DNA of 64,000 nucleotides from Bdellovibrionales bacterium (GTDB lineage: Bacteria > Bdellovibrionota > Bdellovibrionia > Bdellovibrionales > UBA1609). Position numbers and translations under genes: made by a program. The DNA lies in the NCBI GenBank assembly GCA_027317865.1, contig DAHVQG010000002.1, positions 224,001-288,000 on the forward strand. Reading direction: 5' to 3'. Within the stretch, counting starts at the first letter, position 1. Each line of letters starts with the position of its first letter. Shown here piece after piece: positions 46,018-62,964 of the stretch. The notes under the pieces are model-generated. The model was not told where the DNA came from and searched no databases. It was given only the letters and a program-made list of their open reading frames with translations.

Positions 46018-46140
46018 GCCTGAGCCGCAAGAGTCATACAGTCGCCCTCGTGCTGACAAATACATCGCGTCGCTTTTGGCGCGCCGAAGTGGTCAACTTG
46101 GGCAATTTCTGTTAGAATGTGTCGAATATAAATGTCTCTT

Positions 46141-46493
46141 GGGGGCGTAACGGCTTCGACGTGGGTCGTGAAGCTTAAGGAGCATGCCGGGGCGATCGGA
46201 CCTCGTTAAAAACTGGTCAAACTGTTAATTGGCAACACCAATTTTCAACTTGCTGCCTAATTAGGTTCAGCACGCCGACTGTGGGAGTGGTGGCGGCTCA
46301 TAGAAGGCGTCATTTAGTCACCTCGATTGTTCGTGGCTTCTCTGCGCGAGCGGTTTAAATTTTTCAGAGGATGGCCATTTGCGAGTTTGTTTGTGGACGC
46401 GCAACTGGCAACATAAATCACAAACTAAGCATGTAGTTTGGCCTTAATGTGAATCACCTGCGGACCCGGGTTCAACTCCCGGCGCCTCCACCA
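46141..46493 (+). ncRNA. ssrA: tmRNA
   Basis: 5' GGGGGCGTAACGGCTTCGAC; 3' CCCGGGTTCAACTCCCGGCGCCTCCACCA; acceptor stem with G3-U; tag frame 46231-46260 GNTNFQLAA-stop; CTAAGCATGTAG element; 353 nt. Confidence 0.97.
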
Positions 46494-48158
46494 ATTTCGA
46501 CCCCTTGTCAATTCGACAAGGAGATCGAACTCTTTTCTGTAAGAAAATTCGAGACTTCCGCCTTTTAAAATCGGGTTCGATAAGACAACTTTGGCAAGTC
46601 TCGCCTTGTCGAGCAGATTTGTACCCAACTGCATGAAATCGCGCGACTTTTGCAGGAGTTCTATAACTCTCAGACTCGTAGTCAAAGTCTCCTGACTTGC
46701 TTTGGTATGGGCGACGATCTCAATGTCAATTTCGCCAAGAACTTTTCGCTTTTGATCGACGAAGCAATTGAATTCTTCTTCGGTCACAGCGCCTTTTTCG
46801 ACAAGCGTTTTTATATCCTGACAGCGTTTTTCGATGGCTGCCTTTTTCGCTTCAAGCACGGAACTTTGCTCCGCCGAAAAAACACTCAATGCGCTTGCCG
46901 ACGTTTTCACGTTCTCAATAAACGCGGCCGTTGTTTTCGGTGTGAATTTTGAGAATGGCTCGAAAGCTTCAACGACTCTGCTCAGGATTTCTTCCTGGCG
47001 AACGTTGATACGTCGCTCGGGGCAATCATGGCTTGCACAATGGTAATAAATATAAACTTTGCCGCTCGCTTTCTTGTGAACCTCTCCGGTAACAGAATTT
47101 CCGCAAACGCCGCACTTCATAAAATTCATAAACGGTTTTGCTATTTCATGAGAAAGCGACACTCTGGTACTCTCGGCTCGAATCGATTTCACGCGCTGAC
47201 AGCGATCAAAGAGGTCTTTTGATATAATGGGCGCGTGTTTTTCGTTCCCGGTCATAACGGTCGCACCATTTTTTGTGCGGGCTCCGTAATAAAACGGATT
47301 GCAAATCATTTTCTCGATGCAACGATCAGTAATTGGTTGGAATTCCTTTTTTTTAGAAATCTCGCCACCCACGTCCTCGCGCACCCGTTTTAATACTACG
47401 ACGGCTTTGCCTTTAAGAAATTCGGCAAGAGCTTTGTAGGAATAATTCCCGGTGGAATACAATTCGAATGCCTCGGCGATATAGCGCGCTACTTTTTCAT
47501 CAAGTTCAATCTTGGCCCGGCCGTTATCATCGCGCACATTTTTATATCCCACTGGAGCCATACTGTTCCAATAGCCGTCTTCCCATCTTTGATCCATGCC
47601 CTTCTTAATTTCGATTCTCAAGTTGTCGATATAATGCTTGGCCAAAACCACTCCCAGATAAAATCGAAGTTTTTCGCCGGGCGACGAATCTCGATTCACA
47701 ACGAGGTTGTCTCGCGTGAAGTGAAAGCAAACGCCGGCTTCAACTAAATCTTCGATCATCACGGCGGCTCGAAGCCCGCGACAGGCACGATCAATTTTAT
47801 CAAAAATCACGTTTCTAATACCGTTCATGGACACGTATTCGAGCATTTCAAAAAACTTTTTTCGATCGAGTTCTTTAGATGCCGACTCGGTAACCGACCA
47901 GCTATTTACGCATTTGAGCCCAAGGCTCTTAATATACTCGGCTGATTTATCTCTTTGTGCTTCAAGTGAATAGCCCTCTCGTTGTCCTTCCGATGAAACT
48001 CGGAAAAACTCAACAGCTAGATTTGGAGCTGCCGCAGTCTTTAACAGTTTGAGCACTGGCAAGGTTGGTCGCCGTTCAATTTTTTTCCGTTCATCTTTCA
48101 GAAGAATTTTTGCGATCTGCGCCCTTTCTTCGTCAGGAAGCTCTTTTGCGTTGTTCAA
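46425..48158 (-). CDS. Large serine recombinase (integrase)
   Basis: FRVSSEGQ catalytic Ser, SLEAQ, ESAS, DKIDRACR, APVGY, NPFYYG, HAPIISKDLFDRCQ, Zn ribbon CGVCG..YYHC; likely TTG start 48158 after AAAGGAG. Confidence 0.93.
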   Translation of the reverse strand: MNNAKELPDEERAQIAKILLKDERKKIERRPTLPVLKLLKTAAAPNLAVEFFRVSSEGQREGYSLEAQRDKSAEYIKSLGLKCVNSWSVTESASKELDRKKFFEMLEYVSMNGIRNVIFDKIDRACRGLRAAVMIEDLVEAGVCFHFTRDNLVVNRDSSPGEKLRFYLGVVLAKHYIDNLRIEIKKGMDQRWEDGYWNSMAPVGYKNVRDDNGRAKIELDEKVARYIAEAFELYSTGNYSYKALAEFLKGKAVVVLKRVREDVGGEISKKKEFQPITDRCIEKMICNPFYYGARTKNGATVMTGNEKHAPIISKDLFDRCQRVKSIRAESTRVSLSHEIAKPFMNFMKCGVCGNSVTGEVHKKASGKVYIYYHCASHDCPERRINVRQEEILSRVVEAFEPFSKFTPKTTAAFIENVKTSASALSVFSAEQSSVLEAKKAAIEKRCQDIKTLVEKGAVTEEEFNCFVDQKRKVLGEIDIEIVAHTKASQETLTTSLRVIELLQKSRDFMQLGTNLLDKARLAKVVLSNPILKGGSLEFSYRKEFDLLVELTRGRNWWRRRELNPGPQVIHIKAKLHA

Positions 48159-48162
48159 TTGA

Positions 48163-48522
48163 CTAACTCCTTTCATCAACAAAACTTTTGAGATCGCTCT
48201 CAAAATCAGAGAGTTTTCTAATTTCAATATCCATCATCAAATCAATAAATCGTTTCAGGCTCGACAGGTTAGTTGATTTTTTGCTCCGTAAATATGTAGC
48301 TCGCGATTTGTTTCTCTTGCAGCTTTTGCAGACTGTATCCTGGCGTTTTCCCTTCGAATAAAATTCAGACGCCGGAAGACTTTGTAAGCATGTAGTACAA
48401 GATTTTTTAACTATAGTCCGCGTCGCTTCGATCGAATCGGGAGATTTCAACCCATTTTTGGTTGTGATGATAAGGCCCCTAAAAAATTGTAGGACAATAA
48501 TCCGCCCCGAGGAGCGAGGCAA
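48163..48522 (-). CDS. Small basic protein with CxxC...CxxC zinc finger; start uncertain
   Basis: KSCTTCLQSLPASEFYSKGKRQDTVCKSCKR; stop adjoins the recombinase SD. Confidence 0.6.
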   Translation of the reverse strand: MPRSSGRIIVLQFFRGLIITTKNGLKSPDSIEATRTIVKKSCTTCLQSLPASEFYSKGKRQDTVCKSCKRNKSRATYLRSKKSTNLSSLKRFIDLMMDIEIRKLSDFESDLKSFVDERS

Positions 48523-48572
48523 ATACGCCTCGCACCTCCCGTTTGTTCACAATTAGTCGCCACTGTGAAATG

Positions 48573-48986
48573 TCATACCGACGATGGTTCAGTCGATCGC
48601 CTTGATCTCGGTTTTCTCACCTTGGATGTTTTAATGAACTCGCTAATTGAGGAGGCGAGCGCCTCGTCCGATTCAGATTTATCGATTAGCGAACGTAAAT
48701 AGGCTCGCTTGTCGAAGAATTTCTTTTCAAGCCAGGAGCGATCGTTCGCAATGTATCGATCGAAGAAACGCTCGATTATCGCATTTACAAGCTTCGACTC
48801 GTTTACCTTAAATTGACTGCCCGATTGCCGAATTCGCGCCACTTCGCTTGTCAGTTGCGAAATCAGGTCATCCGATATTGCGAGCCGCTTGGGCTCACCA
48901 GTGTTGGAAGAACTGTCGCTCACACGCGGGCTCGTTAATTTTATCGCAGTCTGTCGGCGATGATACACTGTTTGATTTTTGAGCAC
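48573..48986 (-). CDS. Hypothetical protein, possibly DNA-binding
   Basis: 137-aa helical basic ORF (VNESKLVNAIIERFF); GTG start. Confidence 0.55.
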   Translation of the reverse strand: MLKNQTVYHRRQTAIKLTSPRVSDSSSNTGEPKRLAISDDLISQLTSEVARIRQSGSQFKVNESKLVNAIIERFFDRYIANDRSWLEKKFFDKRAYLRSLIDKSESDEALASSISEFIKTSKVRKPRSRRSTEPSSV

Positions 48987-49152
48987 TGTTTGTATCTTTG
49001 CACTGTGGCAGGTCTAACGCCGGCACTTCATATGGATCTGGATCATAGCACGGGCTGGGTGCAAACTTTCGCAGACAAAACATCAACATTAAAAGGCCCA
49101 GCACTAACGAAGTGAACATGAAAAACAACCCCGTCCGATTATATTTATTCAC
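48895..49152 (-). CDS. Hypothetical small membrane-anchored protein
   Basis: GTGA coupling to the upstream gene; single TM. Confidence 0.45.
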   Translation of the reverse strand: MNKYNRTGLFFMFTSLVLGLLMLMFCLRKFAPSPCYDPDPYEVPALDLPQCKDTNSAQKSNSVSSPTDCDKINEPACERQFFQHW

Positions 49153-49517
49153 TTCGAATCATCTGGGAGAAGAAAGATATTCTGTCCGTTTGCCGTCGTT
49201 GAAATCGGATCGCTACCGTAAAAGCCGGATACGCCGAACTTTTCGAGATTAAAAAGCGTGTCGCGCCGAACGTCAGCGTCTCGCTTCTCAAGCCCTTGAT
49301 AGGTTGCATAGCCGGCAATGCCGCCTATCGCGGCCGATATTAGAGCGCTTGTGAGCACGGCTTGACCCTTGTTTTGACTGTCGTGCAGGGCATTGGCGCC
49401 AATGGCACCAACAGCCGCGCCAGTTCCGATACCAAGTAGTGACGACTCCGTCACAGTGGCGCAACCTTGCAGAATACCGAAAAGTAATAGAAAACAACCC
49501 ACGCACATTCGATTAAT
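49149..49517 (-). CDS. Glycine-zipper lipoprotein; start ATT 49517 or ATG 49508
   Basis: Lipobox LQGC; GIGTGAAVGAIG...AAIGGIAGY; SD AAAGGAGG. Confidence 0.7.
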   Translation of the reverse strand: MNRMCVGCFLLLFGILQGCATVTESSLLGIGTGAAVGAIGANALHDSQNKGQAVLTSALISAAIGGIAGYATYQGLEKRDADVRRDTLFNLEKFGVSGFYGSDPISTTANGQNIFLLPDDSK

Positions 49518-49869
49518 ACATCCTCCTTTTAACTCTTGATTTCACGAGAACTTTGTCTCCAACCAAAGAATAATTTTATTTATCAAAATGACTCCTAAAT
49601 TGATCGTTTCATATGATTGTTACTTCGTATAAAAGCGGCGGTTATAGATGCGCGACCGCAGCTCCATAATACCGACACTCATATCTGGATTACTTCGCTT
49701 ATATTTATCAACTCAATGCTAAAGACTTGTACGCACTATCTCTTGTATGACGATTTAACGACCGTAAATATCATCATCATTAAACATACTTTCAAAAACT
49801 CGATATTCTTCTGACTCCCCCGGAAAATCAAAAATAGTGTCCAGTAGTTTCAATTACTTGCGAAGCTCT

Positions 49870-49902
49870 GGCCCCAACTCCAGTTGGGGCCTAGTTGGGG
49901 CC
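49870..49902. repeat. Perfect inverted repeat plus direct repeat (oriT candidate)
   Basis: GGCCCCAACT-CC-AGTTGGGGCC-T-AGTTGGGGCC, next to the nuclease gene stop. Confidence 0.7.
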
Positions 49903-49903
49903 G

Positions 49904-50653
49904 CTATCGGAGAAGAAATGTGGCATTTTTTCGATTTGTAAACGGCAGAGGTGATGCACCACTTCGAACAACATCCATCGTGCATGTGTAGATTTTGGGT
50001 TCAAACTGGGATTCGAATTCAGAGTCGACTCTACGGATAGATTTCTCAATTCTGGCGTCACCGCAAACATATAATGCCGCGACGATATCGTGTGAAAAGT
50101 AATACTCCGTAAGTTTTTTGCCATACCGGACGCCGCTCTTTTCAGATGCCTCAAATTCAAGGGCCAAGCGAAACGATTTTTCCTGGCCCCTCAGTACCAA
50201 GACTGCATCCGCGTTAACAGTGCCAAACGGCCCATACTCCAAAGAAGTAGTCAGTTCTCCGCAAGCTTGGAGCATATTTTCTGATATGTAATCTTCAAAC
50301 ATAGCCGATTTTTCTAGCCGCGTTCGAATATCAGTCAGGGCAACGTCATGCAAATAGGAGTCGCTTTTGAAGTAAGCTTGCGTTATTTCAAATCGATAAT
50401 CTTTGCGAACTACGTTGAATCCTTTTTCGGTTAGACCATATATCAGTTCAAGTGAGCCGCCGCTAGGTATGCCGATTTTTGACAGATATCCATCCCGCAC
50501 AAGCCGCCCCAACCGGTATTGAACGGTTGGCCGTTTTGTCGACTCGAATAATCGGCACCGTATTTGGTCGTAGCTAATGGCCCGCTGCTCGAACGCAAAT
50601 TTCATAACCTTCCGGTCGCGCTCGGTAATCTGGACAGGACCCGTGCGCCGCAT
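49904..50653 (-). CDS. Replication-relaxation (Replic_Relax)-like protein: winged HTH plus PD-(D/E)XK-like domain
   Basis: ITERDR, RLGRLVRDGYL, YGLTEKG, HDVAL, ADAVL, LALEFEASEK...YGKKLTEY. Confidence 0.7.
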   Translation of the reverse strand: MRRTGPVQITERDRKVMKFAFEQRAISYDQIRCRLFESTKRPTVQYRLGRLVRDGYLSKIGIPSGGSLELIYGLTEKGFNVVRKDYRFEITQAYFKSDSYLHDVALTDIRTRLEKSAMFEDYISENMLQACGELTTSLEYGPFGTVNADAVLVLRGQEKSFRLALEFEASEKSGVRYGKKLTEYYFSHDIVAALYVCGDARIEKSIRRVDSEFESQFEPKIYTCTMDVVRSGASPLPFTNRKNATFLLR

Positions 50654-50654
50654 T

Positions 50655-52160
50655 TTACTTAGCCCGACCCTTCACGGTATTTTTACTGAACTCATTCGCG
50701 TCTTGAGATTTGGCTGCACTGAGTTCAAGCATTGGTTGAAAATTCCAGCTTTTGTCGTCAGAAATCGTTTTCGCTATCGCCTGAATTTTTAGCTCCAGTG
50801 CCTCTTCCGAAAGAAATGGCGCCTGAACTTCGACAAATTTGTTCCCGCCGGCCCAAACAGCGCGACCTTTGATGTCGGGTAGCGAATACGCTTTGATATT
50901 TCCAAGCGCCGTGGTGGACCCTGCGAGCGTTGACATTTTAAACACCATTCGACCAGATAGATTTTCAAGCGTTTTGGTATCAAGCGACTCTTTAATAGGT
51001 TTTTGAGTGGCGATTACCAAATGAATTGCTGCCGCCCTTGATAATTTCGCAAGTTCATCTGTCAATTCGCGAGCGCGCGCCACGAGATCAGCTTTGGATT
51101 TACTGACCGTCGTTTTACCGAATAAGACCGAGGCTTCATCGATTGCGACCACGATAAGATCCTTTTTATGGATCGATGGCTCAATTTTTTTGACGCCTTT
51201 TTCTTCCATAAATTGAAAACGCCTTTTCATTTCGTCTCGAACTGCGGTGAGCATTTTTACAGCGCCAACTTCGTCTTTGGCGATTCTCACGTTCGGCAAA
51301 TGGCCGAATTCTTTGAGTTCGACTCCGTGTTTTAGGTCGATCAAGTAAAACTGAATGTGCCGCCACTGACCAAGGCAAACGAGCAGCTGACATTCAAACA
51401 CGCTTTTGCCGCCGCCGGACGTGCCGGCAATTAACAAGTGCGGTAGGTCGCGAATGTCTTGCGTTACTGTCCCGTTGACAGAAGCTCCAACCAAAAATGT
51501 AAACGGCGATTTGAGATCCTTTTCCAGGTCTTCATACAAGAACATTTTTCCGAGTTCCCGCTTGCAGAGCGAGATCTCAATAGTTCTGCGATCAGGCGAT
51601 GGTTCAATTTGTTCGACCATTTGACCAAATGCATATTCGAGATCGGATTTTTTACCTTCAAATCGATCCACCCCCACACCGATTGATCGAACAATAACTT
51701 TGCAGCGTTCGTCGTCCTTTGGTACGACCGCGAGAATTTTTGGCTGCTCACCCTTTGCGTTGCTCAAGCCAACGGAGTTGAAATTATTTTGAAGTTTTCT
51801 TCTTTCCACGAACGCTCTCAAGCCAAGTGCGCAAAGACTTGTGTATGTGACACCTGTGAGTAGTACCAAAAAGTGCGACCATTTTGGCCAGTGTTTTAGC
51901 CATGCCGTAAACTTCGCTGTAAATAGATTTGGCCAAATCCAGTGCAGTGCCTTCAAATATGCATAATCGCCATACGTCGCTGCAAATATGAGAAGAACAA
52001 GTGACGTTGAAAATATAATGAATTCGCTCGAACGAAACTTTATCCGCTTAAGACCCGCCCACGCCATTGAACCCGTCAGCGCAATGACAATGCCGACAGC
52101 GACCACAAACCGTTCAAGACTGTCGTTTTTGGCAACTATACCGTTATTCGGTGGTTTCAT
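50655..52160 (-). CDS. FtsK/SpoIIIE-family ATPase with N-terminal TMs (TcpA-like coupling protein)
   Basis: LPHLLIAGTSGGGKS, LIDLK.GVE, EMKRR, VVAIDEA, RAAAIHLVIATQKP, GRA. Confidence 0.9.
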   Translation of the reverse strand: MKPPNNGIVAKNDSLERFVVAVGIVIALTGSMAWAGLKRIKFRSSEFIIFSTSLVLLIFAATYGDYAYLKALHWIWPNLFTAKFTAWLKHWPKWSHFLVLLTGVTYTSLCALGLRAFVERRKLQNNFNSVGLSNAKGEQPKILAVVPKDDERCKVIVRSIGVGVDRFEGKKSDLEYAFGQMVEQIEPSPDRRTIEISLCKRELGKMFLYEDLEKDLKSPFTFLVGASVNGTVTQDIRDLPHLLIAGTSGGGKSVFECQLLVCLGQWRHIQFYLIDLKHGVELKEFGHLPNVRIAKDEVGAVKMLTAVRDEMKRRFQFMEEKGVKKIEPSIHKKDLIVVAIDEASVLFGKTTVSKSKADLVARARELTDELAKLSRAAAIHLVIATQKPIKESLDTKTLENLSGRMVFKMSTLAGSTTALGNIKAYSLPDIKGRAVWAGGNKFVEVQAPFLSEEALELKIQAIAKTISDDKSWNFQPMLELSAAKSQDANEFSKNTVKGRAK

Positions 52161-53064
52161 AGTAACTACTCGATAGTGAAATGATGAGATCCGATCCGGA
52201 GTCGATCGTTACGTAGCTCGGAGTTTGGCCGAGTTTATTTGCCTGCTCATTTGCTTCCATCTGCGCCACATTCGATAGCCCATTGTAAAAGCCGTTTCTA
52301 AGATTCGCCTTTGGCGTTGGCAAGATCGACTGCCCCAGAGATTCCTTTTGTATCATGACGTCAGACATTCCGCTGATCATCGAAAGACCGATGACAGATG
52401 CCATCCGATCGCCCGTATTGCCGTGATAATCACCAATCACGCCCGGCCGATAGTCCTTGGAGCTTAAGGCCCGCGCACTGATTTTGAATTCATTGCCGTC
52501 CGGTAAAAGCCCATGATCGAAATTGATGTAGACGCGATCGCCGTGACCGGGGTAGCTCGACTGCCCAAATAGAATAGTCTGCGGCGGAAGGCTACCGCCG
52601 CCGAATTTGTGAGCGGCGCCATATGGTAGAACAACTTGCACGCCCTCCGGGTAGCGGGTGTCAATGCCCGAAGCGAACTTCCCAATAAAATTTGATCCAA
52701 TCGGTAATTTTTCGTATGACTCGCCAGGAGTAATCACTTGTTTTGCCCGGTAGCGCAGGTGTAACGGCTGAAGCATTGTCCTAGGCGATTTAGGTGCATG
52801 GCTCAATACGCCGCCGACTTTAGCAACTGTAGCAGCCAGTTGCGCGGCATTGGTTCCGGCGCCTTTTTGAATCAACGACACGTTACTCTGCCTAATCGCG
52901 GTCGCAACGGGTGACTTTCGAATCGAAGGCAGAAGTGAGATAACAATACCGAGAACGGTCAATGCAAACGCCGCAAGGATCGTATGTTTTCGGTTCAATA
53001 CTTTTTTGCCGCCCTCATTCCTAAAGAAAAAATCCCGACTACGCTCACGAATATTTATTTTCAA
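52144..53064 (-). CDS. VirB10/TrbI-like T4SS protein
   Basis: Single TM then beta-rich domain (LPIGS.F.G, DRVYINFD..L.PDG, YVTIDSG); TTGA coupling gives start 53064. Confidence 0.65.
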   Translation of the reverse strand: MKINIRERSRDFFFRNEGGKKVLNRKHTILAAFALTVLGIVISLLPSIRKSPVATAIRQSNVSLIQKGAGTNAAQLAATVAKVGGVLSHAPKSPRTMLQPLHLRYRAKQVITPGESYEKLPIGSNFIGKFASGIDTRYPEGVQVVLPYGAAHKFGGGSLPPQTILFGQSSYPGHGDRVYINFDHGLLPDGNEFKISARALSSKDYRPGVIGDYHGNTGDRMASVIGLSMISGMSDVMIQKESLGQSILPTPKANLRNGFYNGLSNVAQMEANEQANKLGQTPSYVTIDSGSDLIISLSSSYYETTE

Positions 53065-53786
53065 AAATACCGCCAAGGGATACTTCGCTCCGCGAACGTA
53101 TTCATGAAGCGCAACTTGAGCGTGAGGTTCGTCCTTTGCTTTCTTGTAAACAGCAGTCGAACTCGCGCCGACTGCCCATGCTGTACGATGCCGCTTTGAA
53201 CGACAAACTCTTGAAGCGGTAACCGATTTGAGTGATAGCTGAGATCAACTTGAAGACCCGACAGCGATACCGCATTCGTCGAGATGTTCCTAACGGTGAG
53301 GTCTATGAGGTAAAAGGATCGGCCACGAAACTGCTCGATCCGATCAACCTTTACGCCGAGCAGGTGACCCACACGAAATGCGACATGGGGGTTAGAAACT
53401 ACATGAATCGGCGAAACCAAAATGGCCGGCTTCATAGGGTCCGATGAATTTTTGTCCTCCCAATACACATGGACAAGATCGTCATATCTCTCACTCGATG
53501 GACGTAGTAAAAATCCATAAGTGTGTTTTGCACTATACACAAATAAGTTTGTTGCGACGGCACCGCGCGGTTGTACGGCGATGTCTTTGTCTGTGAACTC
53601 GATGCCGTAATAATTCGAATTACCGAGAACCACTTTTTTTGGTTTTTCTTGAAACCTCAATACGGTCGAACGGCCCATTCGTAAATAGATCGGGATCATT
53701 TTTGACCCGTTTGCTTCGACAGTTCGCACATTACCGGCATACGCATGGCATCCGAGAAATAATGCCAACCAAATTAGCCACCGCAA
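53061..53786 (-). CDS. VirB9/TrbG-like secreted T4SS protein
   Basis: Signal peptide; STVLRF, VVLGN, TNLFVYS..HTYGF; lies between the virB8- and virB10-like genes. Confidence 0.6.
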   Translation of the reverse strand: MRWLIWLALFLGCHAYAGNVRTVEANGSKMIPIYLRMGRSTVLRFQEKPKKVVLGNSNYYGIEFTDKDIAVQPRGAVATNLFVYSAKHTYGFLLRPSSERYDDLVHVYWEDKNSSDPMKPAILVSPIHVVSNPHVAFRVGHLLGVKVDRIEQFRGRSFYLIDLTVRNISTNAVSLSGLQVDLSYHSNRLPLQEFVVQSGIVQHGQSARVRLLFTRKQRTNLTLKLRFMNTFAERSIPWRYF

Positions 53787-54383
53787 TTATTTTCCTTGGT
53801 AAACAATTTCGCCGGCTACGTAAAGACCGAGAGGATTCCACTGAGTGCGATCGCCTTGTACGAGTTGAAATGACACTTGAGTGGGGACGACAAGCGGAAC
53901 ATTATCAACTCTCAATACAACATCAAACGTTGCAACCGTACTATCTTTTGTGATTTGAATGCCAAGTCCGGCCACACTTTGTTTAACCTTCTTACCCATA
54001 AAATCCTTGTCTTTTTCTTGACTGAGTTCGGCGATTTCTTGGGCACGGAAATTATCCGTCACAAGCGGTGCAATATCTTCGCCGATGTGATTCGGGTCGA
54101 GTGTATCCCACTGGTATGCAAGTCCCACATACTCTTCAACAAAACGTTTTATGTTGTCTTCACCGAGCGGAACCGGCCGTCTAGTACCTTGAACAAATGT
54201 GTAATCGGCGCCTTGCTGAATCGCGACAATGGGATTTCGATTTGACAGCGTCAGACATAAGATAACGAGGAGCGCGCACAAACCCGCGACGACTGCGCCC
54301 CCAACTTTGTACAAAAATAAAATTCGATTGAGTGCCACCCATTGGTTAATGGGTTTGCCATTTTCAATTGCTTTGAGTAACAA
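53787..54383 (-). CDS. VirB8/TrbF-like T4SS protein
   Basis: Single TM, FVEEYV, C-terminal RTQWNPLGLYV. Confidence 0.7.
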   Translation of the reverse strand: MLLKAIENGKPINQWVALNRILFLYKVGGAVVAGLCALLVILCLTLSNRNPIVAIQQGADYTFVQGTRRPVPLGEDNIKRFVEEYVGLAYQWDTLDPNHIGEDIAPLVTDNFRAQEIAELSQEKDKDFMGKKVKQSVAGLGIQITKDSTVATFDVVLRVDNVPLVVPTQVSFQLVQGDRTQWNPLGLYVAGEIVYQGK

Positions 54384-54384
54384 A

Positions 54385-55332
54385 TTATCTCCTTCTTTTG
54401 TTTATATTCTTAGCTTCTTGAGGTAGCCCGACTTGGGAGTACCAGTTTGAAAAATTCCTGACATGTGGCTTCATTCGGTCAGCCATGATCTGTGCGCGTC
54501 CACTGATGGGGTTAGTCAAAGGTTTAGCCGCAAAGTTCGATGCTGCAAGAGTCCCACCCACGGCCTTTCGACCCAAAACCCTTGATGAAAGCATCGCCGC
54601 CTTCGTCGCCATGAGTCCGGGTGCAGCCGCAAGGCCAGCCGCCGCCGATTGCAATCCATCGCCCAGAAGCGATTTTGCAAATAGAGGAATGAGAAGCATC
54701 GAAACACCGATCAGTAAGTTCATCACCATCGACAAAATGTAGTCGTCAACTCCAACGACCTTTGGATTCATTGCAAGCTTTAATAAAAGTGCGCCGAGGA
54801 GGGTCCATAAAACCTTCCATGTGGCGACACTCACCAGACCCCGATATAAATTGCCCGTGATGCGAGCCGTGGACTTGGGCACGTAGCAAAGAATCATAAG
54901 CGGCGCGCACACAAACAATATTGCCCAAACAAAATTCATGAGCGTAATCGACGCGAAAAATCCGATATAAGCGATGAGGTAAGCGCCAATTGCAAAAATA
55001 TAAATAACGCTTGCTCTAAGATCAAATAGGCTACCTGACTTACCCTGTGAGTTCGGGCCAAGGTGCTTGATTGCGGTCCATAAAGCGTGCGTGTGGTCGA
55101 TGTGTGCCGTTATTTGATCACCCAGCATACCGATCGTGTTAACTACAGTCGCAAAAGAAACGAGAAGCAGGATCGAAATAACCGTTCGCTTGAGTATATC
55201 GTTGACGTTGGGCGAGCTTTTTAAGAATTCAAAAACTATCAAAAGCGTGACCACAGCCGGGAGCAGTATCCAATAAACTTGAACCATCTCGCCGTGGAGA
55301 CTTTTCGCATATACGAATAAATTTTCAAACAT
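54385..55332 (-). CDS. VirB6/TrbL-like polytopic membrane protein
   Basis: About 6 TMs, APLMIL..VP, Ala/Gly-rich tail. Confidence 0.65.
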   Translation of the reverse strand: MFENLFVYAKSLHGEMVQVYWILLPAVVTLLIVFEFLKSSPNVNDILKRTVISILLLVSFATVVNTIGMLGDQITAHIDHTHALWTAIKHLGPNSQGKSGSLFDLRASVIYIFAIGAYLIAYIGFFASITLMNFVWAILFVCAPLMILCYVPKSTARITGNLYRGLVSVATWKVLWTLLGALLLKLAMNPKVVGVDDYILSMVMNLLIGVSMLLIPLFAKSLLGDGLQSAAAGLAAAPGLMATKAAMLSSRVLGRKAVGGTLAASNFAAKPLTNPISGRAQIMADRMKPHVRNFSNWYSQVGLPQEAKNINKRRR

Positions 55333-55334
55333 TT

Positions 55335-56021
55335 CTAAAATCTCGATAAGCTTGTATCAAGCTTGAAATTCTGAAATCCACCGTCGAGATCGCGATCCAC
55401 TTTTTGAAAATCAGTTACCTGATCCTTGTCGGCTTTGTTATTCATGGCCAGCTGTTCGCTCTCAAGTTTCAGCATTTGAGTATTGAGGCGAATAAGCTGG
55501 CTGAGACTTCGCAAAATCTCAGCACTCGTTTCTGCCTGCATCCGAGCGGCACCCTTGGGTGAAGCCTGGCGGGCTTGTACCAGTATCTTTATCGAATTTG
55601 CTTCTTGTTCCGACGAATACTGCTTAAATGAGTCGACCATGCGTAGTGACTCAGCGACACTTTGATCGTTAAGAAGCTCTAATGCCGCAGCTCTACTCTT
55701 CGGCACTCGACCATAAATCGACGAGATCATGTCAACGGCTTGTTTGAAATTTTGTAGATCAGCCAATATTCGATCATCATGCACTGGAAGAGTCGAGAGA
55801 AGTCCGATCGAATTTTCGAGACCGGAATTTATAACGTGCATGTAATCGGACATGTCACGCCCTTGCTGGACCATTGTTTCGAATTCCTGGTAGTCTTGGA
55901 TATTCTGAGCCAGTATCTTTAATAAGATCGGAATGTCACCTCCGAAGAAATCCGCCCTGGCGGGCGGACTTATGAATAATAGCGTAAACGCTGTAACTGC
56001 CGTCCAGCGAAGTATTTTAAT
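55335..56021 (-). CDS. VirB5/TrbJ-like secreted helical protein; probable non-canonical ATT start
   Basis: Frame is open 49 codons upstream of the track ATG and encodes a signal peptide IKILRWTAVTAFTLLFISPPARA-DFFGGD; SD AAAGGAGG at 56026-56033. Confidence 0.65.
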   Translation of the reverse strand: MKILRWTAVTAFTLLFISPPARADFFGGDIPILLKILAQNIQDYQEFETMVQQGRDMSDYMHVINSGLENSIGLLSTLPVHDDRILADLQNFKQAVDMISSIYGRVPKSRAAALELLNDQSVAESLRMVDSFKQYSSEQEANSIKILVQARQASPKGAARMQAETSAEILRSLSQLIRLNTQMLKLESEQLAMNNKADKDQVTDFQKVDRDLDGGFQNFKLDTSLSRF

Positions 56022-56045
56022 ACGACCTCCTTTGAATCAGTTCGA

Positions 56046-58487
56046 TTAAGCGCTCTTCTTCTGTTCATCTTTTTCACTCGCCAGCTTTTTTAGAATCTCG
56101 ATTTTTTTCAGCTCCGGATGCCTTCTTTCAAGCTCTTGAATTCGCGCTTTATCGCCGGCGTCGCTGGTGCAGATCCAGTATGAAAGTGGCTCGGAGGTCA
56201 ACCGTAAAACGATTTGATTTTCATCCTGTAGAAAAAAGAATTCACTATACGCACCTTTTACGACTTCTAAGCTCTTTATCGCTTCAACCTGCGCGTCGGT
56301 GAAATCAAATGTTTCTTGAAAATCCTTCCAGTCAATTTTTCGTTGCTTTAGAATAATGACGCTTGTCGAGTTTGGCATAAGCGCATCGCGGATCTCGGGA
56401 TCAGCCAAAAAATCGCGATAGTTCTGGCTAATGCACCAAATACCGGCGTTGTACTTTCGCCACGTTCTGTAGCAGGTAATAACAAACTGCTTTGATAGCT
56501 CGCCGCTTTTAAAAAACCGCTCGGCCTCGTCACAAATGAGTAGATATGGTCGCGCGAGATCCGATGCCGCTGCATCCTGAATGTACGATGTCAAAAGTAA
56601 TAGCAAAATGTCTTTAAGGTCCGGATGGTTCGTGAGTCCATTTACCTCGATGGTGACAAGATCCTTTGACAAATTGATTGTACTTGGTCCATCGAGCATT
56701 CTACCGTAAGCCGTTTCACCACACCACGAAAATAGAATCTGCGCGAATTTTTGCATTTCTGGATCGTTATGCTTTTCTAGTGCGGTTTTCAGATCCGACA
56801 GAAATGGAACACGCGCGGCCGACCCTTTGTATACGGCAAAAATCGCTTCTTCGAGCATGGCCTTTTCACGTTTTCCTAAAGATTTTTGGTTCGGGTCTTT
56901 AAGAATAAGTTCTAAAATTGCGAGTATCAATTTAACCCGCGCCGGAGATGGCGTGGCTTCGCCGTTTGGAAGATCAAACACATTAATCCGAATGCCGCTT
57001 TCTAAGTTCAAGTCGACAAATTCGCCGTCTAATACTTCGAGCAATTTTTGCGAACTTGCGCCATTATCGATCCAAAAAAGCCGGGGCGTCGGTTTTTGAC
57101 CGTAAAACATGAGCATCAGCTGCGAGATCGTGAAGCTCTTGCCGCTGCCTGTTCCGCCGAAAATCAGACCGTTCCACGCGGGCAATTCCTGCGCAAACGG
57201 TGAAAACGAAAATAGACCGCCGTCACGGTTTGGGATGAGGCACACTGGGCTTTGGTTCCCGCGCCAGTTACCATAGAGCGGGAGAAGATGTGCAACATTA
57301 CTACTCTTCATTTTGTAGTGGCGAAGGCCGCTACACGCACCGGGTAGGGCGTCGATAAAAACGTCAAAACCTGGCAGCGTTTCTACGATCCCTTCAGATT
57401 GACCCATCTGTCGAAACGCTTTTAGAACTTCGTCCGATTTCTCTTCGAGCTCCTCTTGCGATTTAGCCCAAATGATTACGGTAAAATCCATCGATACGAG
57501 TCGCTCACTTCCGTCGAGTAATTCACGTAGCAAGGATTCGATATCGTTTAGTTTTGACTCGCTTTCGAGGTCAGAAACATTTTCTGATCCGCCGGCCATC
57601 GAATTGGCCACGCGACGCTTGAGTTCTAGGCGCTGCCGTTCGCGTATTTGATCCAAAATTTTTATATTCTGGCTCATCCAAAAGTGAAACGGTAACGACA
57701 AAGTCAAATTGTTAATTATAGAGCTATATGTCGAACCTTCAGGAAGCGTTTTCAAGGTGACTGTGCGGAAAAAATAATCGCCAACTCGCAAATGACCACG
57801 ATGGACTTCAATATCTGAAAGTGTCAACTGTTCAATTATTGACGGAGCGAGTGGGTCCCCGGATTCACGCATCGACGGTAATGGGTAGTGTTCTGCGCGA
57901 TCAAGGTTTAGGTATTGAAATACAAGACTAAACCACTCCTCGGGCTCAAGTTTTGCCGGCTTTAGCCCCGAATGTATCAGCGAAGATTCAATTTGCTTTA
58001 ACGCTCGATCGAATTTTTCTCTATGAGCTGTATATTCTGACTCTGCAATGGGTTCGTATTTTTTTTGCGACTCCCAAAAACGGCGCTTTTTATAAGAATA
58101 TGGTTTGCTTCGAATAAAAAGATAGAATTCCGGCACGAAGTAATTTTTTTGCGCTTCATTTCTCTTTAGAAACGATATCCGAGCCTCGGCAATTGGCCGA
58201 TAAATCTCTGGGGCTTCACTTGAAATCGCTGCATGTTCGGTGAGCAGGGCGCTTACATTTGGGGTCACGCGATAAAAGATCTGAAGCTTGAGCCCTTCTT
58301 CCGTACCAATTAACAGATTTTCGACTTTTCTTGTAAAGGTATTGATTTCGTCGGGTGTGCGGCACGAAATATCGACTCCTGTTAGCCGAAATGCACCGCC
58401 AAGTGAGCCGTCAGAATACACCATTAAATCTTGATCGAAGTGCCAAAACGGCAGGCGATCCGCGAGACCCGCAATATTATTTTTCAT
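56046..58487 (-). CDS. virB4: VirB4/TraC-like T4SS ATPase
   Basis: About 813 aa; NGLIFGGTGSGKS, IDNGAS, INVFD, LLICDEA, WRKYNAG...ISQ. Confidence 0.9.
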   Translation of the reverse strand: MKNNIAGLADRLPFWHFDQDLMVYSDGSLGGAFRLTGVDISCRTPDEINTFTRKVENLLIGTEEGLKLQIFYRVTPNVSALLTEHAAISSEAPEIYRPIAEARISFLKRNEAQKNYFVPEFYLFIRSKPYSYKKRRFWESQKKYEPIAESEYTAHREKFDRALKQIESSLIHSGLKPAKLEPEEWFSLVFQYLNLDRAEHYPLPSMRESGDPLAPSIIEQLTLSDIEVHRGHLRVGDYFFRTVTLKTLPEGSTYSSIINNLTLSLPFHFWMSQNIKILDQIRERQRLELKRRVANSMAGGSENVSDLESESKLNDIESLLRELLDGSERLVSMDFTVIIWAKSQEELEEKSDEVLKAFRQMGQSEGIVETLPGFDVFIDALPGACSGLRHYKMKSSNVAHLLPLYGNWRGNQSPVCLIPNRDGGLFSFSPFAQELPAWNGLIFGGTGSGKSFTISQLMLMFYGQKPTPRLFWIDNGASSQKLLEVLDGEFVDLNLESGIRINVFDLPNGEATPSPARVKLILAILELILKDPNQKSLGKREKAMLEEAIFAVYKGSAARVPFLSDLKTALEKHNDPEMQKFAQILFSWCGETAYGRMLDGPSTINLSKDLVTIEVNGLTNHPDLKDILLLLLTSYIQDAAASDLARPYLLICDEAERFFKSGELSKQFVITCYRTWRKYNAGIWCISQNYRDFLADPEIRDALMPNSTSVIILKQRKIDWKDFQETFDFTDAQVEAIKSLEVVKGAYSEFFFLQDENQIVLRLTSEPLSYWICTSDAGDKARIQELERRHPELKKIEILKKLASEKDEQKKSA

Positions 58488-58782
58488 AGATATTGGTTCG
58501 TAGCCTTTCTTGAAATTCAGGTTGCGCGCCTGCGGCATAATGGCCCGGCGTTAAGTAAAATCGCAACAGGTGGAGTAAAAATCCATCAGGTTTATTGCGC
58601 TTTCCTAGATATAGTACGAGCAGCATCGCAACTGGCACACATACGACAATCGGTAAAGGTAGGTGAAGAACATTGAGAATCGAGAGAGCAATCAAAGCCG
58701 CGATGAGATCGAGGGCCTCCATGCCCCCGATCTTCACTCTAACGTCAAGCCCACGGTGAACTGCGGACCTATTCAACTCCAC
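58477..58782 (-). CDS. VirB3-like protein
   Basis: KIGGMEALD, two TMs, KRNKPDGFL; directly upstream of virB4. Confidence 0.7.
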   Translation of the reverse strand: MELNRSAVHRGLDVRVKIGGMEALDLIAALIALSILNVLHLPLPIVVCVPVAMLLVLYLGKRNKPDGFLLHLLRFYLTPGHYAAGAQPEFQERLRTNIYEK

Positions 58783-59112
58783 CTAATAACCTCCGCCAAC
58801 AGCACCTTGCAGCCAGTGAATTATAATCGGCGCGAGACATCCGACGATGCATGCAATGATAATTAGTATCATTCGACCTTTTGCACCCTGATCACCAGAA
58901 ACCGCAAGAATAGCGGCATAGACAAGGCCCAAGATAGAAATCGCTGGCAATACGACAGTGATGAGCTTGCCTGTTAAACCTGCAACACGCCCCGACAGTT
59001 CATCGGCGCCAACGCCGCCATAGCTTTGTGCGAATGCGAAATGCGGGTAAAGAGTCATCAAAGCAAATACGCCGATCAAAACGCACGCCAATGCAATAGT
59101 TGACTTTTTCAC
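58783..59112 (-). CDS. VirB2/TrbC-like pilin
   Basis: Signal peptide ending AFA, two hydrophobic helices separated by GDQGAKGR. Confidence 0.75.
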   Translation of the reverse strand: MKKSTIALACVLIGVFALMTLYPHFAFAQSYGGVGADELSGRVAGLTGKLITVVLPAISILGLVYAAILAVSGDQGAKGRMILIIIACIVGCLAPIIIHWLQGAVGGGY

Positions 59113-59450
59113 TCGGTAACGTCTGGCACAAGAACGAGTCGCTGCGGCAAATATCGGCCAATCTTCATGTACACGTGACCATTCGTCTCGCCACTTGAAT
59201 ATCCATTACCTACAGGTACACGATGAGAAAATTTACCGTTAATATCAACTGGCGAATGAACGACGTAATCGATTCGATCTTCATTGGCCTCTTTCGGTCG
59301 AAGATAGAGAATGGTGCGAGGCGCATCGAGCACAAGTCGATATTCGCCAAATTCAGGGACATAAAATGCAACACCGGCATTATATTTTTCGCCGCTTTCA
59401 GGGTCTAACCAAAACAACTCTTCTTTTTTTGTTTTTTTAATTTTTTCCAT
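59109..59450 (-). CDS. Hypothetical beta-rich protein
   Basis: SD GAGG before ATG 59450; GTGA coupling to the pilin gene. Confidence 0.6.
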   Translation of the reverse strand: MEKIKKTKKEELFWLDPESGEKYNAGVAFYVPEFGEYRLVLDAPRTILYLRPKEANEDRIDYVVHSPVDINGKFSHRVPVGNGYSSGETNGHVYMKIGRYLPQRLVLVPDVTE

Positions 59451-59509
59451 TTTAGAAATCCTCAAATTATTTGTAATTGACCGACAGTAAATCCATTCCG
59501 AGATTTTAC

Positions 59510-59851
59510 TTACGCCGCGACGAGTTCCTCTCCTGAATCTTTTCTCAGGGCTGAAACCAGTTCACTTCGCAAATTATCGAGTGCATGGCTAAAAATCTTT
59601 ATTGTTAAATCGATCGGCAGTTCAATTTGTGCGGCGATTGAAGAAAACGACAAGCCCTCCCAGAATCTCAAATAAACAACCAAACGTTCTTCGCGAGACA
59701 GTTTGGCGACACGGTCGCGCACGAGTGCGGCCTGGCGGTCTTTTCGTTGGTCGTAGCGCCAATGTTTTTTTCGTTCATAATCAGCGAAAACTCTATTATC
59801 CATCTCACGCTCAATCATTTTTGGACTCCAATATTGAAGTTTCGTGTTCAC
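59510..59851 (-). CDS. Sigma-70 region 4-like HTH protein
   Basis: LSREERLVVYLRFWEGLSFSSIA...ALDNLR. Confidence 0.8.
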   Translation of the reverse strand: MNTKLQYWSPKMIEREMDNRVFADYERKKHWRYDQRKDRQAALVRDRVAKLSREERLVVYLRFWEGLSFSSIAAQIELPIDLTIKIFSHALDNLRSELVSALRKDSGEELVAA

Positions 59852-59979
59852 CAGAACCGTCCGTATAACCCGTATTTGATTCGAGCTTCATCGCGTGCCT
59901 TTCTTAATCGTTCCTCATCAACTTTTATTTCAAAAAGTATATAGTGGACCCGCTTAAAAATTTGGCGGAGCTTATCCAT
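59848..59979 (-). CDS. 43-aa small protein not in the ORF track
   Basis: MDKLRQIFKRVHYILFEIKVDEERLRKARDEARIKYGLYGRFW; SD GAGG; overlaps the upstream stop and the downstream GTG (GTGA). Confidence 0.6.
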   Translation of the reverse strand: MDKLRQIFKRVHYILFEIKVDEERLRKARDEARIKYGLYGRFW

Positions 59980-60451
59980 TGGATGCCTCTTTTGAAAATG
60001 GGATTACATTCGAGGTTTGCCTCTCGACAGTTTCATCGGGGCGCCGAAAACTAACGACGTTTTCAATGCTGACAACGCGAGCTTCTGGCTTGCCATTACC
60101 GCCGTTTTCTAGAAATTCCTGACACTCGATACAAAAAGTGCAGTCCGGCTGTGCATCGAGACGCCTGGGATCAATTTCTTCTTCGCATCCTTCACACACA
60201 CCGAAAATCCCCATGTCGATTCGTCTGAGTGCTCGCGCCAATTTGCCAGCTTGCCTTTCGATATGTCGAAACATACCCATTCGTTGATTGCGATCGCTCA
60301 GTTCTTTTGCTTCATCGAGTGGGTCGGGTAAAATTAATGGGTCTTCGACAATCGCGCGCAATTCGGATTCGAGACCCTCCCACATTTGGTGGAGGGCGCG
60401 CTGTCGCTCCAAGATATTGTCTTTGAATTTTTGTAGCTGTTCGTTTGTCAC
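59972..60451 (-). CDS. TraR/DksA C4-type zinc finger protein
   Basis: DPLDEA (DxxDxA), ALRRIDMG.FGVCEGC, RLDAQP...CIECQ; GTG start after GAGGAGGAG. Confidence 0.9.
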   Translation of the reverse strand: MTNEQLQKFKDNILERQRALHQMWEGLESELRAIVEDPLILPDPLDEAKELSDRNQRMGMFRHIERQAGKLARALRRIDMGIFGVCEGCEEEIDPRRLDAQPDCTFCIECQEFLENGGNGKPEARVVSIENVVSFRRPDETVERQTSNVIPFSKEASNG

Positions 60452-60881
60452 GTTTTTCTCCTCCTCGTGGGGGGAAAAATTAGCCCCACGACTTTCTGTT
60501 ACTGCAAGAGGAGTCAGCGATCGTGCCAACAGACGAAAAGTAATTGGATTGATTAAGAAAAAATGGATTTTGCTCGAACGTGGCCGAACTTAAAAATGAA
60601 CGCAGTTACGTCCACGAATTTTGAATTTCAATGTGTTATCGCAAACATGATGAAAAGACGTATCTACGTCCATTCGATCACTCAAATTTAGTGCGGAATA
60701 ATTTGGAGAATTAGTTCACGTCGAACAGGACTCGACGCCGGCGGGCCATAATGACTGCTTCATTTCCGGCCGGCACCGGCCCGCATTGATTTAAAGTGCC
60801 TGCATTTTGGGCCGGGCTTTCCGTCGGCTGCGGCTCATATTCGCACCTTTTAATACGGCTTACGATCGTAGAGGCTACTAT

Positions 60882-62933
60882 CTAATTCGTGGGCAACTCC
60901 AAAATGTTTACGCCTATGTCAGTACCGTCAAGCGTGCCACTGCTTGAGTACGGAAGGCCGAGACCGCTTACCCCTATGCCGTGATATAAACTCAAAGGGC
61001 TCAGAGCATATCCGGTGTCTGAAGTGGCTGATCCATAATTCGTAAAACCCACTGCACTATCATTCACTGGTTTGAAATTTCCGGCTGGAACGGTGCTGTC
61101 CTTATTGCCGACAAGCACGTTGTTGACGAACACGGAGTGCGTGCATTGTGGCGGAATCGCATTTGCGAAATGAGATAACGTTGGGCCGGCACCGATGCCG
61201 TACTGGGTAGAATCAAAGATGTTATTGCTCCATACACAATTATTGAGTGCCATATTAACGGTACCAGCGCCAAACCAAATAGTTTCTGGCGCTCCACTAC
61301 TAGCCGTGTCTATGAAACTATTGTGGTCAAAAATCAAATCTCCACCATTGCCTCCCCCGTGCTCGTCGACTCCGGCGAGATTTGAGCCAATCAAGCTAAT
61401 CGCTGTACTAGTCGTTCCGTCGCTTACTGTCTGGATAAATATATTATTACGAAACAAAATACGTTCTGCGGGTTGTGTATCATGGGCGCCCATCGACGCA
61501 TTGTCTTGCATCAATACATTAAAGCCCCCGAACATTGCGTTTGTAAATACATTGTCCGATATCGTGAAATCAGCGAGGTGATACCAAGGATTCGTGCCGG
61601 CCTGATCTCGAGAGGTCAGTACAAATGCTGAGCGCGGCTGACCTGGGGCGCCAGCGTTAGTCAAATAGTTGGAGCTAAACAATACGCGCTGACCGGTTTT
61701 GAATTCAACCATGTTTTTACCTGTGGAGATTGCCGTAACATTAACTGACCCTGCGGTAGTACCAATGGCTGCAGAACTCATTTGGTAAGTTCCCGCTCCA
61801 CCAGGTGTACCCGAAAGTTGGGAAATTATTTTTACGCGTGCCGGAATGTAACTATTAGCATCTTTTGGCGCCATCGTGGGTTGGATAAATCCGTTCGTCA
61901 CTGAGTTTATCGTCAGAATCGATGAGCCGTTGACCACTGAACCTGTACCAACAAAATATGGTTTGTAATAGTCGTTATTTGTGATTGTAATGTCACTCGG
62001 CTCGCTGGGGAACGGTAACGTAGTATCCGAACCGCCAAACAGAGTGGTTTCACCACCTGCTTGTAGATAGTTGTTGTGGATTTTATATGGACCTAAGGAG
62101 TTGATAACGAGGATTGCATTATTGTCGCCGGTCGCTGGATCGAACGCCGTAATGTAGGACCCCACCACCTCCATAAAATTGCCGTCCATGTCTACCGCGT
62201 GGCGCACACCGTATGTGGGGCTTCCAGTGATGTAACATCTGTCGATCGTAATGTTAGATGCAAGCGTTGAGGGCGAAATGTCTTTATTGTTGAAATTGAT
62301 GTCGTAAAAATTTTCACTATTCATTTTCGCATTGGCATCCGTTAACTCAATATCAAGTCCCACTAACCGGTAATATGAAGCACTTATTCCTCTTTTGATG
62401 ATTGGCCCTCCGCCAGTGGATGTGGAGCGTATCGACGCCATATCAGAAACGTCTGAGGGGCTAACTCGCATTCCGGCGGTTGGTAGACCAGATCCGCCGA
62501 TCTCAGGGGCGTCGGAGGAGATAATATAGATCCATCCAGATCCTGAGCGAGTCGGCAGCGTGAAAGAACTAGATGTCGTGTACGTCGTGCCAGCCTGAAG
62601 TACGATCACATCGCCCAGGTTCCCCGTTGCCGAAGCAGCATCATTGAGCGCCTGTTGCAGCGTCATGCTAGAGTCATGTCCATAGCCAGGAGTATAATAC
62701 GAACCGCGATTTGTATTTGCTGGCAACGGCGGAGAAGAGGTTGTCGAGAATTGCTGGGGTAGTGTGGGCAACGTAGCGCCAAACCACATCTCATTAGAGG
62801 TTCCGCTTGAAGTTGAAGCAGACGTAATTGAAGAGGATGTAAAACCACTAGAGCAATTTTGAAACAGAAACAAAACCGTCAAAAAAGTTAAAACAACTAA
62901 TGAAATACGTTTTAAGCTCCATTTTTGATCCAT
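60882..62933 (-). CDS. Lipoprotein with right-handed beta-helix (pectin lyase-like) repeats
   Basis: LFQNC lipobox, Ser/Thr linker, LQQALNDA..GDVIVL.AG, repeated ITITNN/ILFRNN/IFDHNS/WSNNIF strands. Confidence 0.75.
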   Translation of the reverse strand: MDQKWSLKRISLVVLTFLTVLFLFQNCSSGFTSSSITSASTSSGTSNEMWFGATLPTLPQQFSTTSSPPLPANTNRGSYYTPGYGHDSSMTLQQALNDAASATGNLGDVIVLQAGTTYTTSSSFTLPTRSGSGWIYIISSDAPEIGGSGLPTAGMRVSPSDVSDMASIRSTSTGGGPIIKRGISASYYRLVGLDIELTDANAKMNSENFYDINFNNKDISPSTLASNITIDRCYITGSPTYGVRHAVDMDGNFMEVVGSYITAFDPATGDNNAILVINSLGPYKIHNNYLQAGGETTLFGGSDTTLPFPSEPSDITITNNDYYKPYFVGTGSVVNGSSILTINSVTNGFIQPTMAPKDANSYIPARVKIISQLSGTPGGAGTYQMSSAAIGTTAGSVNVTAISTGKNMVEFKTGQRVLFSSNYLTNAGAPGQPRSAFVLTSRDQAGTNPWYHLADFTISDNVFTNAMFGGFNVLMQDNASMGAHDTQPAERILFRNNIFIQTVSDGTTSTAISLIGSNLAGVDEHGGGNGGDLIFDHNSFIDTASSGAPETIWFGAGTVNMALNNCVWSNNIFDSTQYGIGAGPTLSHFANAIPPQCTHSVFVNNVLVGNKDSTVPAGNFKPVNDSAVGFTNYGSATSDTGYALSPLSLYHGIGVSGLGLPYSSSGTLDGTDIGVNILELPTN

Positions 62934-62964
62934 AATATTATTACACCCGATCGACTAAAACGAC

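Follow-up and report, generated by a model that had tools for sequence, protein, structure and literature searches.

A conjugative element at the 3' end of a Bdellovibrionales tmRNA gene carries a serine integrase whose reading frame ends in host DNA

In the Bdellovibrionales genome studied here, the gene for a large serine integrase has no stop codon of its own and reads, antisense, into the host tmRNA gene (ssrA) beside which its integrative conjugative element (ICE) lies, and at least the last 11 residues of the integrase, together with the stop codon, are encoded by the host. The mechanism that we propose is that the ICE used this integrase to enter the extreme 3' end of the tmRNA gene, and that in this integrase family the attachment site coincides with the final codons of the integrase gene. 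The conserved part of the protein would end at two tryptophan codons, TGGTGG, the antisense of the CCACCA at the end of the target, with no stop codon of the element's own at that point. After integration the frame would run on through host DNA, as the antisense of the tmRNA, to the first in-frame stop, supplied by the motif CTAAGCATGTAG, and the 11-20 residues so appended would be dictated by the host and would change on excision, as judged from the bracketing of the junction and not from an attP sequence. The tail would be a tolerated, disordered appendage, a by-product of keeping the attachment site at the end of the integrase gene for targeting the conserved end of an RNA gene. From the sequence comparisons and structure prediction set out below, we consider it probable that this ICE serine integrase has a host-dictated, non-regulatory tail of this kind. 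The window analysed is a stretch of 64,000 nucleotides (positions 224001-288000 of contig C22 of the genome, here G000), and the coordinates of its features are collected in Table 1.

Table 1. Features of the tmRNA gene, the integrase gene and the conjugative element (positions are those of the window)
Feature	Position	Strand	Basis
Putative sigma-70-like promoter of ssrA, TGGTCA-17-TAGAAT with TG	46090-46118	+	consensus match only
tmRNA gene (ssrA), tag peptide GNTNFQLAA	46141-46493	+	ARAGORN; Rfam
Large serine recombinase (integrase) of the element, longest ORF 600 aa	46425-48227	-	ORF listing, Pfam, homologues, fold
Antisense overlap, 69 nt: last 22 integrase codons and TAG / tmRNA 3' end	46425-46493	both	ORF listing and sequence reading
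Part of the tail certainly host-encoded in the integrated state, QVIHIKAKLHA and stop	46425-46460	-	differences from G006
Bracket for the recombination crossover / element-host junction (attL)	46460-46494		G006 comparison and element-free relatives
Predicted stem-loop directly 3' of the tmRNA, within the integrase coding region	46496-46529	+	-16.8 kcal/mol, z -3.5
Integrative conjugative element (ICE)	46494-64000 and beyond the window		integrase and conjugation genes
Conjugation module	49904-59112	-	Pfam
Replic_Relax relaxase	49904-50653	-	Pfam 3.6e-09
FtsK/SpoIIIE coupling protein	50655-52160	-	Pfam 2.7e-21
TrbI/VirB10	52144-53076	-	Pfam 1.1e-10
CagX/VirB9-like	53061-53786	-	below Pfam cut-off
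TraC/VirB4 ATPase	56046-58538	-	Pfam TraC/TraG P-loop 1.5e-24
TrbC/VirB2-like pilin	58783-59112	-	below Pfam cut-off

ARAGORN finds one tmRNA gene in the 64-kb window, and Rfam matches it at full length (model positions 1-374), scoring 174.5 bits where the gathering score is 47; the putative promoter ends about 22 nt 5' of the tmRNA start. On the opposite strand, as the first-pass annotation of this DNA had stated, the recombinase frame meets no stop before ssrA: by ORF listing and sequence, none is in frame until the TAG at 46425-46427, which is complementary to the CTA of the conserved tmRNA motif ACTAAGCATGTAG. The sequence likewise bears out that the last 22 codons and the TAG are antisense to the tmRNA end, over exactly 69 nt, and that the first tryptophan codon (46491-46493) lies antisense to the terminal CCA. 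The second tryptophan codon occupies 46488-46490, and the C terminus as a whole reads ...RGRNWWRRRELNPGPQVIHIKAKLHA. The overlap is not a matter of chance, because members of the integrase family repeatedly show this read-through, and in the same frame.

By its domains and its fold the overlapping ORF is a large serine recombinase. Pfam places Resolvase (PF00239, 2.7e-15), Recombinase (PF07508, 7.7e-09) and Zn_ribbon_recom (PF13408, 1e-06) in that order, and 26 homologues show no variation at the catalytic residues R53, V54, S55 and Q59, at the zinc-ribbon cysteines C349, C352, C374 and C379 or at W556, with W557 at least 90% conserved among them. The protein stands in the public collection as a form of 577 residues that starts at 48158, and an AlphaFold2 model of this form, built on the alignment of 26 sequences (mean pLDDT 77), has the coiled-coil helices (429-454 and 460-510) typical of a serine-integrase zinc-ribbon domain. 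Foldseek matches it to full-length serine integrases: 9y66_A (E 1.8e-17), Bxb1 9iu2_A (8e-13), PhiC31 9rah_A (1.5e-11) and 4kis_C (4.6e-10). The last secondary-structure element of the model is a helix at 542-552, and residues 552-577, which take in the two tryptophans and the entire tail, have pLDDT below 50; the tail is accordingly predicted to be disordered, and such low values are compatible with a short linear motif. The best NCBIfam models are XisF (75.7 bits, cut-off 375) and CcrB (63 bits, cut-off 900), and because both scores fall far under the curated cut-offs the integrase belongs to neither family. Large serine recombinases of the CcrB and XisF types have the same domain order as the present one and differ from it in their targets.

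The element to which this integrase belongs is, on its gene content, an ICE: integrase, relaxase, coupling ATPase and T4SS genes stand in one block, with the integrase at the tmRNA-proximal end. It spans at least 43 kb from the tmRNA, up to the end of C22, and its far end was not found; past the window its cargo includes sigma-54 regulators, a YcaO-like protein, an RHS-repeat protein and an IS91-type transposase. Neither Pfam nor NCBIfam matches the two ORFs beside the integrase gene (48163-48522 and 48573-48986). The element is also present in a second species of the genus (G006), again at the tmRNA gene, where 14,352 alignment columns downstream of the tmRNA are 99.36% identical to G000, another 10,931 columns, in inverted orientation, show 99.96% identity, and the two integrases are 99% identical. 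The inverted cargo segment of 10.9 kb (G000:C22:284845-301632, window 60845 onward, against G006:C4), whose blocks overlap by 13 nt at the joint, holds sigma-54 two-component genes and genes for a solute-binding protein, the YcaO-like protein and the RHS-repeat protein. The last 77 nt of C22 (313623-313699) recur unchanged inside contig C33 (37042-37118) on the opposite strand, and at this shared repeat the assembly of the element breaks; C33:38067-40552 matches, at 100% identity, DNA close to the end of the G006 contig.

The junction between element and host can be bracketed by comparing the two species, whose tmRNA genes are only 93% identical and which upstream of the tmRNA share a sole blastn match, of 143 nt at 84.6%. 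From 46100 to 46459 they differ in 41 columns (16 before the tmRNA, 25 inside it), the last of these at 46437, 46440, 46458 and 46459; no column differs from 46460 to 46516, and five differ from 46517 to 47967, seven more at 47994-48000 being the edge of the compared G006 locus. Four differences in 23 nt, set against 99.4-99.7% identity elsewhere, imply that 46437-46459 is host DNA and so place the junction rightward of 46459. In three genomes of the genus that lack the element (G005, G001 and G004) the tmRNA end is shared and divergence begins directly after the CCA. On these comparisons the junction is within the 35 nt from 46460 to 46494, that is, within the 69-nt overlap, and an attachment repeat spanning all 69 nt, which the first-pass annotation had named as a way for both states to have the same tail, is at odds with that bracket. 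The base changes at 46458/59 turn a glutamine into an arginine, and the 99%-identical locus L044 reads ...PGPRVIH...; one element yields integrases with different tails in two hosts. Other near-identical pairs of elements able to narrow the crossover were sought, and only G000 with L044 qualifies. A contig of run X2 holds a tmRNA of the G000 type (46078-46493, with three other letters, all before the gene) followed by 229 unlike letters past 46493. We give it little weight, since it may represent another island or a graph join through 33 nt common to the tmRNAs of other organisms, and absence of integrase coverage in X2 does not show that the element is absent there.

Recovery of the distal attachment site and translation of the excised form had been proposed at the outset as a check: attL is bracketed as above, and attR was found in neither G000 nor G006, so that the excised tail was not reconstructed. 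The window holds no repeat of the tmRNA end and the G000 genome no significant second copy of it, and a search of G000 and G006 for its last 19 nt with up to three mismatches gave nothing beyond chance. Matching k-mers of at least 11 nt are at chance level, one of them being a tRNA. The 30-nt flank of the X2 contig, absent from G000 and from five genomes of the genus, yielded no attR either. One candidate, a 13-mer on the minus strand at C33:28861-28873 that is reachable through the 77-nt overlap of C22 and C33, was rejected as unsupported: it has no dyad symmetry with the integrase-side arm (10/24, control mean 9.6), is absent from G006 and has ordinary genes as neighbours. The sole match to an inverted copy of the integrase-side arm, on C41, is due to chance. 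The genomes of eight relatives hold no 18-20-nt repeats of the tDNA end (a single exact 18-mer, in G044, falls inside a penicillin-binding-protein gene), the long contigs of three relatives hold no suffix repeat of at least 9 nt within 34-80 kb, and a metagenome scan for the junction gave 0 matches. The missing attR is explained by contigs that end in repeats, namely the IS91-type transposase and the 77-nt overlap.

Two models of the crossover site are suggested by these results, and both place it within the overlap. A short core near CCACCA is favoured by the lack of tDNA repeats and suffix repeats among the relatives just described and by the invariance of CACCA, which is kept in 24 of 24 aligned integrase ends, including eight with no tDNA nearby. 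A site in the T-loop is favoured by the 20-bp repeat of the Dehalococcoides islands discussed below and by tmRNA fragments of 21 and 26 nt in G001. These fragments of the tmRNA 3' end (L099, G001:C68, 2537-2562 for the 26-nt and 4231-4251 for the 21-nt fragment) lie 1.7 kb apart on a contig of 5.6 kb with no integrase beside them; they may stem from other islands, and they mark the tmRNA end as an insertion site used repeatedly in the genus. Another genome of the order has, 3 kb downstream of its full tmRNA gene, a second and partial copy (G027:C1:1447846-1447982, query positions 213-353) that has the look of a small island with a long fragment displaced.

The same read-through recurs among relatives of the integrase. 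Of 170 homologous proteins the best 120 were listed and 26 (44-63% identity) were read closely; all 26 keep the C-terminal block ...KPFD.L..LT..RNWW, and most continue after WW with RRRESNPRP... or something similar, which is the antisense of the T-arm and acceptor stem. A C-terminus pattern parsed 57 of the best 120 of the 170 (the other 63, being unparsed, are uninformative), and in these 57 the tail after WW has 0-76 residues and carries the T-arm antisense signature in 35. At 44 related loci, which include MAGs of Bdellovibrionales, Oligoflexales and Pseudobdellovibrionaceae, ARAGORN finds a tDNA in 25, comprising 10 tmRNA and 15 tRNA genes (four each for Ala and Gln, two each for Met, Leu and Asn, and one for Pro). 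The integrase-proximal tDNA is convergent with the integrase gene in all 25, and the integrase-frame ORF overlaps it in 23, by 10-236 nt and, in eight loci, by 66 nt; the value of 236 nt comes from L049, a truncated match of uncertain frame. The exceptions are L045 and L085, and at L053 Rfam adds a tmRNA that starts 279 nt beyond the ORF stop. Homologues with the read-through are 25-63% identical to the present integrase, those from Bdellovibrionota at 39-63% and those from Saccharibacteria and Elusimicrobia at 25-31%, and the latter also run into tRNA-Gln or tRNA-Asn genes with a tryptophan on the CCA. With homologues across that whole range reading into a convergent tDNA in 23 of 25 loci, a private loss of the stop codon in this one genome is excluded.

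Several relatives depart from the common arrangement. At L053 (4477-4860) the integrase is separated from the tmRNA by an AT-rich spacer of 365 nt, and its end abuts an acceptor-like block of 11 nt that matches the tmRNA end at 10 of 11 positions, which suggests tandem or remnant insertions. The L045 tail (about 4640-4701), WSGRLGSNQRP, resembles the antisense of a tRNA 3' half, while the tRNA-Pro found by ARAGORN starts 89 nt past the stop; by this resemblance the tail is probably a displaced tRNA fragment. Five relatives (P0012, P0013, P0016, L069 and L071) have mutually similar tails after WW that are not tDNA-like (a Q-N-P ... S ... N motif) and at which Rfam recognises no RNA gene, and this shared tail may reflect a different conserved target or element-borne sequence. 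In the L069 genome, about 200 nt flanking the integrase end recur 12.8 kb away at about 88% identity (L123/L124, C11 457267-457286 and 470062-470081), both copies ending at CCACCA; the second copy runs on as a 29-nt inverted repeat (79%) whose 14-nt spacer has its midpoint at the start of CCACCA, lies beside an IS91-like transposase and could represent either a vacant target site or the end of a transposon.

Because the junction lies inside the ORF, the C termini encoded by the integrated and the excised form must differ, and to this extent the state-dependent tails proposed in the first-pass annotation stand, with the Q/R difference between hosts in their favour; the further proposal that the exchange sets stability or directionality found no support in tails that vary from 0 to 76 residues, are predicted to be disordered and show no evident degron. 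We think it unlikely that the tail swap is a selected switch in which host and element tails alter the stability or directionality of the integrase, like a built-in directionality factor or degron, even though two isoforms must exist and the stop-less design is retained across distant relatives. Tail length and sequence simply mirror the target RNA gene, with no conserved feature beyond what that gene imposes: at tRNA-Ala targets the conserved W is followed by 1-3 residues (one at L047 and L055, which end KWS and WWR), and tmRNA targets give tails of about 20 residues because the conserved tmRNA motif supplies the stop. The LAA-type motif is a C-terminal degradation tag, and the present tail, ending KLHA, does not match it, nor do relatives that end ALHS or ALHT (others end LRV or LHV). 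The integrase must moreover act from both the circular and the integrated form, so that both tails must be tolerated, which favours a passive by-product and is compatible with modulation. On the other side, no directionality factor or partner recombinase is recognised beside the integrase gene with Pfam or NCBIfam, the same idea was raised for the recombinase DsiB in the available part of McMurdie et al. (PMC3146451), and the part of the report on mycobacteriophage BPs available to us presents an integration-dependent change of a C terminus as established (PMC4557955). A stop-less gene kept from Bdellovibrionota to Saccharibacteria and Elusimicrobia could be selected rather than tolerated. Quite unlikely, in our view, is the broader proposition that a stop-less clade (Bdellovibrionota and Oligoflexia, with distant members in Saccharibacteria, Elusimicrobiota and Melainabacteria) targets the CCA ends of tRNA and tmRNA genes and that its tail swap sets directionality or lifetime without a separate factor.

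It seems highly unlikely that the overlap matters through RNA, with convergent transcription from the strong ssrA promoter into the integrase gene, or pairing of integrase mRNA with tmRNA, holding integrase expression low while the element is integrated. The promoter-like site at 46090-46118, the lack of a consensus plus-strand terminator between the tmRNA end and 47249, and the geometry by which 69 nt of integrase mRNA are antisense to an abundant RNA would all suit such an effect, but a stable stem-loop with a U-rich tail (46496-46529) could stop the read-through. This predicted stem-loop is possibly an ssrA terminator contributed by the element; it is not conserved in the family, and 24 aligned sequences give 0 predicted pairs downstream of the CCA. 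Scarcely plausible is a fixed, decaying remnant with an integrase out of use and a meaningless read-through, for which one could cite the attR not found in G000 or G006 and the rearrangement of the far part of the element between them, but the element is 99.4-100% identical between two species whose tmRNA genes differ by 7%, the integrase ORF is intact with its invariant R-V-S catalytic motif and four zinc-ribbon cysteines, the conjugation module is complete, and contigs ending in repeats account for the missing attR.

Read as a by-product of where the attachment site lies, the tail still has practical consequences. Gene calling will yield integrase ORFs that extend into tDNAs and have host-dependent tails, and protein clusters of these integrases will therefore contain artefactual C termini. 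Elements of this sort may escape island finders that look for long displaced fragments of a tDNA. A whole family of serine integrases uses tRNA and tmRNA genes, conjugative elements have moved recently between species, and an integrase that recognises the universally conserved end of an RNA gene could serve as a broad-host-range integration tool. A tail swap with a function, if there were one, would amount to a new means of controlling the directionality of a serine integrase, which the present data do not show.

Attachment sites inside genes are known from other systems. In SSV1-type archaeal integrases, attP lies inside the integrase gene and integration splits this tyrosine integrase gene in two. 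The attachment site within the integrase ORF and the alteration of the gene by recombination are common to those integrases and the present one; here, in contrast, only a short C-terminal tail is exchanged. Integration-dependent immunity in mycobacteriophage BPs and its relatives is a second case. In BPs, as here, attP lies within a coding gene and integration alters the C terminus of the product. The BPs gene is reportedly that of the repressor, recombination is by a tyrosine integrase, and the tail that is lost has been proven to act as a degradation tag. In the present element, by contrast, the gene is that of the serine integrase itself. Islands of tyrosine integrases resemble the present element in targeting the 3' part of a tDNA, in restoring the gene and in having the integrase beside the intact tDNA, and differ from it in recombinase family and in leaving long displaced tDNA fragments, of which none was found here; the Islander paper, in its available part, describes serine integrases as not known to target tDNAs (PMC4383910). 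In the literature on serine recombinases at tmRNA and tRNA genes and on Bdellovibrio ICEs, we found no such overlap other than that of DsiB, and a tycheposon preprint and a TIGER/Islander note, in the parts accessible, mention serine recombinases without an overlap of integrase and tDNA.

The closest precedent is that of the ssrA-specific islands of Dehalococcoides with their 540-residue serine recombinase DsiB (McMurdie et al., 2011; PMC3146451), for which the following rests on the portion of the paper at hand. There, as here, a large serine recombinase gene is convergent with ssrA and adjoins it at attL, the ORF overlaps attL/ssrA and the stop lies only outside the island. The authors had already proposed that the protein may differ between the circular and the integrated form; they describe the C termini of DsiB as divergent and suggest that it is perhaps fully functional only on the circular element. 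The likeness is one of gene arrangement, by description; the model of CcrB, with which the paper compares DsiB, gives the present integrase 63 bits against a cut-off of 900. The Dehalococcoides islands are non-conjugative and carry a small serine recombinase, DsiA, and homologues of RecF, ParB and Mom, whereas the present element is an ICE with a T4SS in which the next genes are those of the relaxase, coupling protein and T4SS. A 20-bp repeat of the ssrA end delimits those islands, where no repeat was found here, and they are ssrA-specific, unlike the relatives of the present integrase, which also use tRNA genes. As far as this portion of the paper goes, the arrangement itself is already described once, in DsiB, with the same speculation (PMC3146451). 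What is added here is modest: the arrangement is also found in conjugative elements and across a broad family of serine integrases with both tmRNA and tRNA genes as targets.
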